Part shown: piece after piece, positions 9,987 through 18,231 of the stretch
How the letters are laid out: each line of letters opens with the position of its first letter
Position numbering within the stretch: position 1 is the stretch's first letter
Source: a virus
Virus genome (UHGV): UHGV-0080837
Direction: 5' to 3' (one strand)
DNA length: 29,296 nt
Program-made: the position numbers and the translations under genes
Notes under the pieces: model-generated
Told to the model about the DNA's origin: nothing
Seen by the model: the letters and a program-made list of their open reading frames with translations, nothing else
Databases searched by the model: none

Positions 9987-10158
9987 CGCTTTGCTCTCCT
10001 GCGTCTCTTTGCTGCTCGTCGTGCCGCTGCAATACCGGTATGGCGGCGCTTTGGTGCTGGGGTGATGTTGTCAGCCATCAGGACCTGTGGCTTTGCAATT
10101 AGCGCAGAAGCCCAAAAACGAGTCGGGTACGGTAACAAGCCAATACATGCCACACGCA

Positions 10159-10605
10159 CTACTCACCTCCGTTGATGCGAATGCCTGTTGCAATGCTGTT
10201 TATGATGCTGTCAGTGCATGGGGTAGAAAGCTGGGCATCTCCAGCAATTTTCATGACATCAACATCTGCATATCGAATACCGAGGTGTATCAGACCGGCT
10301 ATACCTGACTTAAGCCGAGCATTTTCCATAAACAGATCCTTTGCCCGCTGTTTTTCTGCCTCAAGCTCAACGCGCAACTTCCCTACCGTTAGCGCAATAT
10401 CCTCGTTCTCCTGGTCGCGGGATTTGATGTATTGCTGGTTTCTTTCCAGTTCATCCAGCAGTGCCAGCGCGATATCTGGCGAAAAGTGCTTCATAAAATC
10501 GTTAAGCGCATTAATTCGCTGATCGAAGGGCATTACAGGTGCTTCACCAGCAATTTTTGTTTTTTCAGCGATTTCACGAAGCTTTTGATAATCAATCTTG
10601 CTCAC
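10159..10605 (-). CDS. Ea22-like phage protein (paralog 3)
   Basis: GTG start preceded by AGGAGG; N-terminus MSKIDYQKLREIAE shared with the neighbouring paralog; coiled-coil middle. Confidence 0.55.
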   Translation of the reverse strand: MSKIDYQKLREIAEKTKIAGEAPVMPFDQRINALNDFMKHFSPDIALALLDELERNQQYIKSRDQENEDIALTVGKLRVELEAEKQRAKDLFMENARLKSGIAGLIHLGIRYADVDVMKIAGDAQLSTPCTDSIINSIATGIRINGGE

Positions 10606-11189
10606 TGGTTGCCTCCTTTGCGAAGCTGTTCAGCAATACTTACGCATATCTCTGCGCCTCTAATCAGCCCCGGAACGTTCTTGTTTGGCCCAACTTCACC
10701 ATCAACAAAATCAATCATCGCGTTACGAGCCATATCCACCCCCTGCGCACGTACTTCAGCCAGGAGAGCGTCGGTAGCTGGGGTTTCCGTGAAGTTGTCC
10801 TCCCAACCGTAGTACTCCTGACGACAGAAGTTATTAAATTCCTTCTCCGACTGTTTAAGCGCCGCATTCTCCACTGCCAGCGCCGCGCACTTGGCCTCAA
10901 GAGCGGCAACCACTTCCTGATGGTCTTTGTACTTAACGTATGAGCCGGAGATGTCATCACCTTCGGTGTTTAGCCATGCGTCATTGCAATTCACTGCGTA
11001 GGTTCTGATGCTGATGCTCTCCCGCCCCTGACAGACGCCAGGCCAGTCAATAAAGTATCCGCAATGCCTACCCTCAGACGTGCGCGCAGGATAAATGCCG
11101 TTATGACCCGGCAAAATATATGCTACCCATTCATCTTGCGTTGCCTGTTCCGCCGCCTCGCGCAGTTCTTGATAGTTAATTTTGCTCAC
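10602..11189 (-). CDS. Ea22-like phage protein (paralog 2)
   Basis: GTG start preceded by AGGAGG; N-terminus MSKINYQELREAAE; C-terminus ATDALLAEVRAQGVDM ... QLRKGGNQ shared with the 14072..14506 paralog. Confidence 0.6.
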   Translation of the reverse strand: MSKINYQELREAAEQATQDEWVAYILPGHNGIYPARTSEGRHCGYFIDWPGVCQGRESISIRTYAVNCNDAWLNTEGDDISGSYVKYKDHQEVVAALEAKCAALAVENAALKQSEKEFNNFCRQEYYGWEDNFTETPATDALLAEVRAQGVDMARNAMIDFVDGEVGPNKNVPGLIRGAEICVSIAEQLRKGGNQ

Positions 11190-16615: not shown

Positions 16616-16783
16616 ATGACCGTTCGCTACCTCAACTTTCAAATCCAGAACATCACTGGCGGTTGCTATGACTGGTTTGTCACTCTCGGAAAAGAAGTGA
16701 TCACCGGGAAGCTGGATGAAGTGAAAGCTAAAGCAATGGCCTACGCCTGCAAGCAAGCCAGGAAGAAATCCGCCAAAGCATAA
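16616..16783 (+). CDS. small hypothetical protein (55 aa)
   Basis: Hand-translated MTVRYLNFQIQNITGGCYDWFVTLGKEVITGKLDEVKAKAMAYACKQARKKSAKA; GGGGTG 6 nt upstream of the ATG. Below the ORF-track cutoff. Confidence 0.3.
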   Translation: MTVRYLNFQIQNITGGCYDWFVTLGKEVITGKLDEVKAKAMAYACKQARKKSAKA

Positions 16784-16888
16784 AATACTGACTGTTGCGC
16801 CCTGACATTATCGTGGGGTATATTTCTACGGCACCTTAGAAAAACGGGTGCCGGGATTGGTCTCCCGGTAATGTCAAAGGCGACACAT

Positions 16889-16916
16889 AGACGCCACAAG
16901 CGTCTTTTTTGTTGTC
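16889..16916 (+). terminator. hairpin plus T-run (attenuator or terminator-like) inside the immI-like leader
   Basis: AGACGC CACAA GCGTCT followed by TTTTTTGTT at 16889-16913. Confidence 0.35.
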
Positions 16917-16924
16917 GGCGCACT

Positions 16925-17010
16925 CGCACACCTATCAATGGTGGGCTGTGTGGTGGCTTCTTCGGAAGCGCCGGTTCCCTTTGACGCCGGTAAGACCAAC
17001 TCCACACAGT
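16925..17010 (+). ncRNA. c4: candidate c4-like antisense RNA (P1 immI type); boundaries approximate
   Basis: Contains CCCTTTGAC (16977-16985) and AGACCAA (16994-17000), antiparallel complements of GTCAAAGG and TTGGTCT, which occur twice downstream/upstream as direct repeats. Also a GCUUC-UUCG-GAAGC tetraloop hairpin (16956-16969). Confidence 0.4.
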
Positions 17011-17074
17011 CCACCGCCAGTAAGATTGGTCTCTTCGGCGGTGGTATCGTTCACTGTCAAAGGAGGCTGCCAAT

Positions 17075-17290
17075 ATGGCTACTATCCCTACCCCAACTCA
17101 TTCTGAATTTATCTGGCGTTTCTATTCCTGCCAAAAACACCTGTATATCTGCGTCATGGCTGCAACCGAAGCAGAAGCTCGTTCATACCTTCCTGAAGAA
17201 CCCTGCATTTTTGCCGCACGCTTCACTCTTGATGCGATGGAGATCCTCAATTACTGGAATCTGCCAATGAACTGCGTGGAGGTGCACTGA
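17075..17290 (+). CDS. icd: Icd-like small protein (host cell division inhibitor family)
   Basis: 71-aa ORF; pattern IWRFYS ... AATEAEARSYLPEEPCIFAARF resembles Icd-like proteins. Its RBS AGGAGG (17061-17066) is part of the b2 antisense target; its stop overlaps the ant ATG (TGATG at 17288-17292). Confidence 0.5.
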   Translation: MATIPTPTHSEFIWRFYSCQKHLYICVMAATEAEARSYLPEEPCIFAARFTLDAMEILNYWNLPMNCVEVH

Positions 17291-18231
17291 TGAATCTGTC
17301 CATCTCTCAAAAAGCGACAATGACCAGTATTGAGATCGCGGAACTGGTAGGTAAGCGTCATGATAATGTGAAGCGTACCATTGAAGTATTAACTAAAGGT
17401 GGTGTCATTCAATTTCCTCAAATTGAGGAAATTGAAAATAAACAATCAGTTGGCCCTCGTCGATTTTCCAAGGCTTACATCTTTGAAGGCGAACAAGGAA
17501 AACGAGACAGCATTATTGTCGTCGCGCAGCTCTCTCCCGAATTCACCGCCCGGCTGGTGGACCGCTGGCGCGAACTGGAGAGTGCCAAAGTACAGTTAAA
17601 ATCAAAAGCCGAAATTCTGGCTGAAATGGCGCAAATGCATCTTGAGCATGAACGCCGGATCAACGCCGTTAATGCCCAGGTAGCCGAAGTATCGGCACAA
17701 GTGTCCAAAGTCGCTGAAACCGTCGAGCAAATAAAGAAAGGCAATATGCCGGAAGGCTACATTGGCTACCGCCAGTTGGCGGCGAAATGTGGCCTGACTG
17801 AAGCCAAATGTCGCAACCTGGTTAACGCTTACCGGATTCCCACCGATACACATGAGTTTTTGACCCCCGATGGCTTGCTTGCGCGACGCTCCATTGTGGC
17901 TCTGGCCCCCTTCCGGAAAGCCTTCAAGCAGGTTATGTCGGAGGCAGAACCACGCAACAAACGCTGGTATCATCCCAAGATGGGGCTGTTTCAGGCAATC
18001 CATCATCCTTTACCGGAAATCCCAAAAGATAATCTGTCACTGCATACCGCCAGAGAGAAGATCAGAAGTGGATATGCAACGGTATGCCGTCGCGCCTCAT
18101 GGTCTGAAGGTGTATGGGTATGGCCCGAAGGCGGATCAAGGAAGCACTGGCGCACTATCCGGGATGGGAAAATCCATGCTATTGATTTAGCGCCAGAGGA
18201 TATGGTTGCTATGGACTGGATTGTTAGTTAA
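17290..18231 (+). CDS. ant: antirepressor (Rha/Ant N-terminal domain) with C-terminal DUF2829-like domain
   Basis: N-terminus TSIEIAELVGKRHDNVKRTIEVL is a typical Rha/Ant-type HTH start. C-terminal ~60 aa (SGYATVCRRASW ... WVWPEGG ... IHAIDLAPEDMVAMDWIVS) parallel the DUF2829 domain at 2588..3265. Confidence 0.6.
   Translation: MNLSISQKATMTSIEIAELVGKRHDNVKRTIEVLTKGGVIQFPQIEEIENKQSVGPRRFSKAYIFEGEQGKRDSIIVVAQLSPEFTARLVDRWRELESAKVQLKSKAEILAEMAQMHLEHERRINAVNAQVAEVSAQVSKVAETVEQIKKGNMPEGYIGYRQLAAKCGLTEAKCRNLVNAYRIPTDTHEFLTPDGLLARRSIVALAPFRKAFKQVMSEAEPRNKRWYHPKMGLFQAIHHPLPEIPKDNLSLHTAREKIRSGYATVCRRASWSEGVWVWPEGGSRKHWRTIRDGKIHAIDLAPEDMVAMDWIVS

Follow-up and report, generated by a model that had tools for sequence, protein, structure and literature searches.

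What does the region in front of the icd-like gene of virus genome UHGV-0080837 do, and if it encodes immunity, against which relatives? The window, by which we mean the whole 29,296-nt stretch of DNA analysed here, belongs to a D6-like phage-plasmid of E. coli. A first-pass annotation, made from the letters alone, had likened repeated and complementary blocks in this region to the phage P1/P7 immI operon, which with its c4 antisense RNA, icd and ant1/2 was reportedly described by Citron and Schuster in 1990. In this D6-like plasmid prophage, positions 16795-18231 very probably form a lysogeny/immunity module of the immI type, in which C4 would repress icd and hence ant. Judged from its sequence, the module is full and apparently intact, and carries a recognition code unlike that of P1 or D6. 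Its features are as follows.

16795-16824, + strand: candidate sigma-70 promoter, TTGCGC / 18-nt spacer / TATATT; positional equivalent of P1 P51b/P1c4
16831-16910, + strand: leader RNA of the isrK family (RF01394) containing a1 and b1; three hairpins, the last an intrinsic terminator
16857-16863, + strand: a1 site TTGGTCT, looped out by the second leader hairpin (CCGGGA-TTGGTCT-CCCGG)
16873-16880, + strand: b1 site GTCAAAGG, in a single-stranded stretch just upstream of the leader terminator
16889-16911, + strand: leader intrinsic terminator (stem AGACGC/GCGTCT, 5-nt loop, T6), from a terminator scan and part of the isrK model
16934-17021, + strand: C4 antisense RNA (RF01695); mature RNA predicted at ~16940-17018 (~79 nt) by homology to P1 c4 (48343-48419)
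16978-16985, + strand: b' CCTTTGAC, placed by the Rfam structure line in the loop (12 nt) of the second C4 hairpin; complementary to b1 and b2
16993-16999, + strand: a' AGACCAA, in the single-stranded junction from hairpin 2 to the 3' strand of the closing stem by the Rfam structure line; covaries with a1 and a2
17026-17032, + strand: a2 site TTGGTCT, 5-8 nt past the predicted C4 3' end; positional match to P1 a2 (48423-48429)
17056-17063, + strand: b2 site GTCAAAGG, overlapping the icd Shine-Dalgarno AGGAGG (17061-17066)
17075-17290, + strand: icd-like gene, 71 aa, ATG at 17075
17290-18231, + strand: putative antirepressor gene 'ant', 313 aa, whose start and the stop of icd overlap; N-terminal domain of the Rha type

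Scanned at Rfam gathering thresholds, the whole window gave exactly two matches, C4 and isrK, which are adjacent and both on the + strand; the scan found one C4 only. The C4 match scores 75.3 bits against a threshold of 45 and covers the full model (1-87 of 87), an outcome in line with the covariance-model search that had been proposed as a check on the first reading. The small RNA had been placed at 16925-17010, and C4 does lie there, with the span slightly off relative to the Rfam match (16934-17021) and the predicted mature RNA (~16940-17018). An independent minimum-free-energy fold (-42.9 kcal/mol, z = -5.1) agrees with the Rfam structure line, showing the long closing stem around two hairpins that the family requires. 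In P1, RNase P releases C4 as a stable RNA of ~77 nt from a precursor of greater length. In the window the AUGG context at the 5' end and the CC(A) context at the 3' end are conserved, at positions homologous to the annotated ends of P1 c4.

The leader matches Rfam isrK (RF01394) with 60.0 bits against a threshold of 50 over model positions 1-77 of 77, and its fold has z = -2.9. Its terminator was also found independently by a simple scan (16889-16905 plus the T-run). Rfam groups the c4-a1b1 family (RF03163) in one clan with C4. The window leader shares the two-hairpin layout of c4-a1b1 leaders, but is of the isrK-type subgroup; against the c4-a1b1 model it scores 17.6 bits, below the threshold of 46.7 (E=0.089). 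The discrete, terminated element of the isrK family that houses a1 and b1 (16831-16910) had escaped the first-pass annotation.

The pairing sites themselves had been noticed correctly, with one small exception. The sequence GATTGGTCTC is repeated at 16855-16864 and 17024-17033, and TGTCAAAGG at 16872-16880 and 17055-17063, its second copy running into AGGAGG; CCCTTTGAC is present at 16977-16985. The motif AGACCAA is also there, its true position being 16993-16999 rather than 16994-17000. The antiparallel complements had been given as 8 and 7 contiguous base pairs in the order that pairing requires, and in that order contiguous complementarity amounts to 7 bp at a (TTGGTCT/AGACCAA) and 8 bp at b (GTCAAAGG/CCTTTGAC). 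Such an arrangement is rare by chance. A triple was defined as a direct repeat of at least 9 nt with a reverse complement of at least 7 nt between its copies; among 5000 dinucleotide-preserving shuffles of 16790-17077, one triple occurred in 8/5000 and two triples in 0/5000.

Covariation among relatives was examined in 88 IMG/VR loci, gathered by a pattern that fixed the C4 stems only and left the loops free, and comprising 47 distinct loop combinations. Four of the 88 (L006, L047, L050 and L075), in which a/b complementarity was absent, were taken as false matches and excluded from the alignment. The alignment held 44 distinct modules with sufficient flanking sequence, in which a1, a' and a2 are in register. 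In the a'-a2 helix 99.7% of cells are paired, with 83 double-change cells and none changed on one side only, and in the a1-a' helix 98.7% are paired, with 85 double changes; neither helix contains a G-U pair in any of the 44 modules. For both helices 0/500 shuffles reached as high a value, and sliding the partner by 1-3 columns reduced pairing to 16-44%. MAFFT did not align the b loops and sites in register, so instead of a column pair count the longest exact complement was compared between own and other modules. Complements of at least 7 nt to a module's own b' loop lie downstream (b2) in 83% of modules and upstream (b1) in 53%, against 3.6% for non-cognate loops in each case. Moreover, b2 ends 7-11 nt before a start codon in most modules, though the downstream ORF ranges from 58 to ~250 aa. 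The a helices covary and the b sites track their own loop, and evolution thus supports the pairing. The two specificities also reassort, AGACCAA being joined as a' to four different b' loops and CCCTTTGAC as b' to two different a'.

These data also bear on whether the region codes for protein instead of RNA. Open reading frames do exist here, namely a minus-strand ORF of 110 aa at 16741-17073, which is D6 orf84, and plus-strand ORFs at 16909-17106 and 16938-17270. The GenBank record of D6 (MF356679) has no RNA feature at this place and gives the hypothetical orf84 on the opposite strand instead, and 'orf45' of the Salmonella prophage Gifsy-1, which overlaps C4, is reported as translated (PMC4825925). 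We regard a protein-coding role as highly improbable, and rejected it: none of these ORFs has an NCBIfam match, two RNA covariance models are matched over their full length, and the variation among relatives preserves base pairs, not codons.

Downstream of the RNA region, the product of the icd-like gene shares 63% identity with P1 Icd over 59 aa (E=6e-28). It is recognised by NCBIfam (NF033153, 49.4 bits, cut-off 25) and PHROGs (phrog_1426, 139.9 bits), and has no Pfam match. A TGATG overlap of the icd stop and the ant start had been reported, and it is found at 17288-17292; P1 has a similar overlap, with icd ending at 48691 and ant1 starting at 48688. The parallel with P1 icd-ant holds for Icd, but does not extend to the 313-aa protein, which is not a homologue of P1 Ant1/2 (BLASTP against P1 Ant1 gave no significant similarity, E=0.22). 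Its N-terminal domain matches Pfam Phage_pRha (37.2 bits, cut-off 29.9) and its whole length matches phrog_63, 'anti-repressor Ant' (211.7 bits), while D6 orf82 is annotated as a putative anti-repressor. We call the protein a putative antirepressor on the strength of these PHROG and annotation labels.

The promoter-like TTGCGC-18-TATATT that had been pointed out at 16795-16824 is present and matches 8/12 consensus positions, but its -35, TTGCGC, is poor, matching 3/6, and it failed a consensus scan. The position of the -10 is nevertheless conserved. The distance from its end to the isrK model is 7 nt, as it is to the leader hairpin in P1 (-10 at 48218-48223, leader hairpin at 48230), and in the TAnnnT columns of the family alignment T, A and the final T are found in 29, 34 and 34 of the 36 modules that cover them. 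The promoter of the P1 operon has a C1 operator, Op51, and none of the P1 type is detectable in the window: the P1 C1-operator consensus ATTGCTCTAATAAATTT, allowing up to 3 mismatches, gave no match, although that consensus is P1's and may not be that of a D6-type repressor.

A weak promoter would suit a module that is a decayed or silent relic, its repeats and fold kept by descent, with too little transcription or an inactive antirepressor. The annotation of pVTB432v-3, a 97%-identical plasmid, lists its Rha-family gene as a truncated pseudogene, and a second immI module in related elements could do the job. Against such decay stand the intact icd (71 aa) and 313-aa ORFs of the window, the strong AGGAGG, the perfect state of all six pairing sites and the conserved -10 position across the family. 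Moreover, the nearest alleles carry compensatory changes, not random decay. We therefore consider a relic improbable.

The first-pass annotation had ascribed to this region the a1/b1, a'/b', a2/b2 logic of P1 c4. Comparison with the curated P1 record (NC_005856), in which Op51, P51a/b, a1, b1, c4 (48343-48419), a2, b2, icd and ant1/2 are annotated, agrees with this, since the sites follow one another in an identical order, at distances that are almost equal. In both P1 and the window the order is promoter, a1, b1, terminator-like hairpin, C4, a2, b2 with the Shine-Dalgarno, icd and an overlapping ant. The site lengths (7 and 8 nt) and the C4 fold are the same, a1 and b1 are 14 nt apart in P1 and 16 in the window, a2 and b2 are 29 and 30 nt apart, and P1 a2 lies 4 nt after the end of c4. 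The differences lie elsewhere. The recognition sequences are unlike at both sites, and the antirepressor is, in the window, an unrelated protein with a Rha-type N-terminus. The leader scores as c4-a1b1 in P1 but as isrK in the window; the P1 leader, which has its terminator-like hairpin between b1 and c4, reaches 51 bits on c4-a1b1 and 35 bits on isrK. From the scores of the two leaders it follows that isrK and c4-a1b1 are two subgroups of one leader element.

Escherichia phage D6, the nearest sequenced phage, is an element of the same type as the window and is 88% identical over 1.9 kb around the module. The gene order is shared: ref, leader-C4, icd, a Rha-type ant, pmgF to simB, and mat. In the D6 record this reads ref, two small ORFs, the RNA region, icd, the putative antirepressor, pmgF, simB and mat. 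However, both a and b are changed in all their copies between D6 and the window, every difference being mirrored across a1, a' and a2 and across b1, b' and b2, which makes the window a different specificity allele. The recognition sequences compared are listed below.

This window: a TTGGTCT, b GTCAAAGG
P1: a TTGACAG, b GTTAGTG
D6: a TTGAGAC, b GCAAAAGG
Second module of pVTB432v-3: a TTAGCAG, b GTACATG
Gifsy-1: a TTGGCGT, b TCACCG

RNAduplex had been suggested as a check on the pairing. Run on the whole C4 against whole targets it was uninformative, as intramolecular stems are ignored, and energies restricted to the loops were used instead. These do separate cognate from non-cognate pairs: cognate duplexes lie at -18 to -24 kcal/mol and every non-cognate one at -5 to -17.5, for a2/b2 targets and leaders alike. 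The first-pass annotation had suspected a specificity distinct from that of P1, and in silico the a and b sites differ from those of P1 and also of D6. Because P1, D6 and the related plasmids' second immI module all use other recognition sequences, this C4 should repress its own target type only, which would constitute a separate immunity specificity. A separate (heteroimmune) specificity is thus supported in silico. Knowing that the allele is TTGGTCT / GTCAAAGG allows heteroimmunity to be predicted between D6-like and P1-like elements that reside together, and explicit evidence that D6-like elements include heteroimmune alleles is a modest addition made here.

How the module would act can be set out in steps. 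The sequence elements, their families, the positional homology to P1, the covarying pairings and the loop energies come from the results above, while RNA processing, the coupling of ant to icd, polarity through Rho, the activity of the antirepressor and the leader's part are inferred. The promoter at ~16795-16824 would drive a transcript starting at ~16831. Many transcripts would stop at the leader terminator (16889-16911), giving an IsrK-like sRNA of ~80 nt with a1 and b1, and those that read through would carry C4, a2/b2, icd and ant. A consensus scan of the + strand gave no promoter-like site between the leader terminator and C4, so C4 would come only from read-through transcripts. C4 (~79 nt, 16940-17018) would then be cut out of this read-through precursor, and its exposed b' loop and a' junction would form duplexes with the a2 and b2 sites that the same species of mRNA carries. 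The b'-b2 duplex would mask the icd Shine-Dalgarno, blocking translation of icd. Because ant overlaps icd (TGATG) and would depend on its translation, no antirepressor would be made, and the prophage repressor would stay active. In P1, untranslated icd RNA also undergoes Rho-dependent termination, and similar polarity may operate here. In the minimum-free-energy fold of the full read-through RNA, a1-a' and b1-b' pair in cis and the C4 fold is disrupted; the amount of active C4 would therefore depend on processing kinetics. As modelled, this cis-paired fold looks much like 'structure A' of PMC4825925.

That work concerns Gifsy-1 IsrK/orf45 (STnc1160)/anrP of Salmonella, and a closer inspection revealed that the locus resembles the module of the window: a terminated isrK-family leader of ~77-80 nt with a1/b1 is followed by a C4 RNA, a2/b2 and an antirepressor. 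The Gifsy-1 isrK scores 79 bits on isrK and is also above threshold on c4-a1b1 (48.1 bits). Directly after it come a C4-family RNA (69 bits) and then anrP, the antirepressor gene, with a b2-like site overlapping its ribosome site. In contrast to the window, Gifsy-1 is an integrated lambdoid prophage of different specificity and has no icd, b2 lying directly on the anrP ribosome site. IsrK was described as 77 nt long and as stopping at a terminator of its own, through which part of transcription reads; processing of the longer transcript yields STnc1160 ('orf45'), an RNA of ~80 nt, and the two RNAs are mutually complementary (PMC4825925). Supplied in trans, IsrK raised anrP translation ~140-fold and the long transcript only ~8-fold (PMC4825925). 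IsrK is Hfq-associated and was published as a translational activator, a behaviour known for Gifsy-1 only, with the system likened to P4 CI/seqA; P1 c4 is uncited there, and its repression logic is not invoked (PMC4825925). Elsewhere, a 2025 review has IsrK and c4 as separate entries, and a paper on APSE phage notes both RNAs in one genome without linking them. We conclude that Gifsy-1 IsrK is an a1/b1 leader of this kind, that 'orf45/STnc1160' is a C4 RNA, and that the Gifsy-1 system is a c4-type module. The recognition of IsrK, c4-a1b1 and the P1 a1/b1 sites as one device is a modest addition made here; it links two literatures, that of IsrK/orf45 and that of c4, and leaves the known mechanism unchanged.

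The Gifsy-1 findings make a decoy, or anti-antisense, role of the window's terminated leader plausible. By analogy, the a1/b1 leader is most probably a competitor for C4, in cis within the precursor and in trans as the terminated sRNA, which would tune or relieve repression. Tentatively, and as something possible rather than probable, we extend this to a three-RNA immI switch equivalent to the IsrK device. In such a switch the leader would titrate C4 in trans, and decoy, repressor and target would all arise from one promoter with a leaky terminator; Gifsy-1 IsrK and the putative a1/b1 sites of P1 would represent this one device, D6-like phage-plasmids would hold two orthogonal copies, and a and b would reassort into new immunity types.

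The leader might instead be mainly a cis attenuator, similar to P4 CI/seqA, with C4 binding the nascent leader and altering read-through into c4-icd-ant, and repression through a2/b2 unchanged. So read, the leader would provide feedback control of C4 synthesis, and would not be a trans-acting decoy sRNA. P4 CI acts by premature transcription termination, not by masking the ribosome site before an antirepressor. Phage P4 does resemble the window in having, for prophage immunity, a processed small RNA (CI) flanked, on its upstream and its downstream side, by two complementary target sets (seqA/seqC) on the same transcript (PMC4825925); no P4-family match was obtained in the window. The layout would allow attenuation, as 8 nt separate the end of b1 (16873-16880) from the terminator stem at 16889, and C4, having no promoter of its own, would depend on read-through for its synthesis. 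Moreover, a1/b1 covary with a'/b' as strictly as a2/b2 do, so that selection for pairing acts on the leader sites, and the authors of the IsrK study raised a P4-like possibility for STnc1160 (PMC4825925). However, their measurements with IsrK in trans show the larger effect on translation rather than on the long transcript, and co-expression of STnc1160 did not behave like a termination factor (PMC4825925). In sequence the cis and trans roles look alike, and the two are not exclusive. We judge a mainly attenuating leader rather unlikely, and keep to competition for C4 as the most probable role.

The immI module is not new in kind, because both RNAs are Rfam families, near-identical copies are present on public plasmids such as pVTB432v-3 and CP058021, and the immI-like region of D6-like prophages has been published: in the D6-like plasmid pYU39_89 an immI-like c4/icd/antirepressor region was described together with a second c4 and icd region (PMC6799933). 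It is also not new because some GenBank phage records already carry 'C4 antisense RNA' annotated next to 'isrK'. Such a module decides the lysogenic upkeep of P1/D6-type phage-plasmids and which related phages meet immunity; E. coli and Salmonella commonly harbour such plasmids, some of which bear genes for resistance.

Among E. coli plasmids of 80-97 kb, identity to the module region reaches 97%. The module has 292 matches in E. coli and 235 in PLSDB. In PLSDB one plasmid is 99.6% identical over the module and 12 more are at 95-99%, and the window allele is a minority: 13/235 matching plasmids are at least 95% identical, and 192 are at 80-90%. An exact search for the combined b' and a' loop sequence in 185,579 species-representative genomes did not find it, and the window allele is not known outside E. 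coli plasmids and a single IMG/VR contig. Plasmid pVTB432v-3 has, ~20 kb away from the module and beyond the limits of the 29-kb window, a second, P1-like module made up of a c4-a1b1 leader, C4, icd and a protein with an ORF6N domain.

The closest relative, plasmid pVTB432v-3 (97% identical), was found to carry a second immI module approximately 20 kb away from the first.

29779-31246 of pVTB432v-3 (NZ_CP178693.1), outside the window: second immI module, P1-like

This module consists of a c4-a1b1 leader, a C4 RNA, icd and a gene for an ORF6N-domain protein. Its a/b code (TTAGCAG / GTACATG) is its own. D6-like elements thus have two c4 switches, predicted to be orthogonal to one another and each located before a different putative antirepressor. 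A tandem arrangement, not observed in P1, D6 and the window, occurs among the IMG/VR loci, where two full isrK-plus-C4 modules lie on the same strand with approximately 370 nt between them.

L005 3165-3716 and L065 101-652: complete isrK-plus-C4 modules in tandem

Across the 88 IMG/VR loci gathered with the C4 stems fixed and the loops free (L002-L089), recognition sequences of the a type reassort independently of those of the b type. Four different b' loops accompany the a' sequence of the window, AGACCAA, while the window's b' sequence, CCCTTTGAC, is found with two different a' sequences. Variation in the a helices is confined to double changes that keep Watson-Crick pairing; neither G-U pairs nor changes on one side alone occur.

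The Rfam c4-a1b1 threshold was also exceeded by IsrK of Gifsy-1, an experimentally studied sRNA.

34070-34330 of Gifsy-1 (NC_010392), minus strand: IsrK / C4-family region

The C4-family RNA of this region is the published 'orf45/STnc1160' (69 bits), and a b2-like site, ATCACCGG, overlaps the Shine-Dalgarno sequence of anrP. Neither the IsrK paper (PMC4825925) nor a 2025 review links this system to P1 c4.

Two ORFs of the window lie over or beside the RNA genes.

16741-17073, minus strand: ORF over the RNA region; D6 counterpart orf84 (locus L001, 3341-3640)
16616-16783, plus strand: 55-aa ORF; phrog_7786 match; D6 orf85

In the D6 GenBank record neither c4 nor the leader is annotated as an RNA; a hypothetical protein (orf84), annotated on the opposite strand, spans both. 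RefSeq plasmids bearing the D6-type allele are labelled 'ash family protein' at the same region. Both labels look like protein calls on RNA genes. The 55-aa ORF, whose end lies 12 nt upstream of the candidate promoter, matches phrog_7786 (unknown function) over its full length (147 bits) and is conserved as orf85 in D6. Downstream of icd, the Rha-family gene of pVTB432v-3 (10112-10822) is annotated as a truncated pseudogene; its counterpart in the window is an intact ORF of 313 aa.
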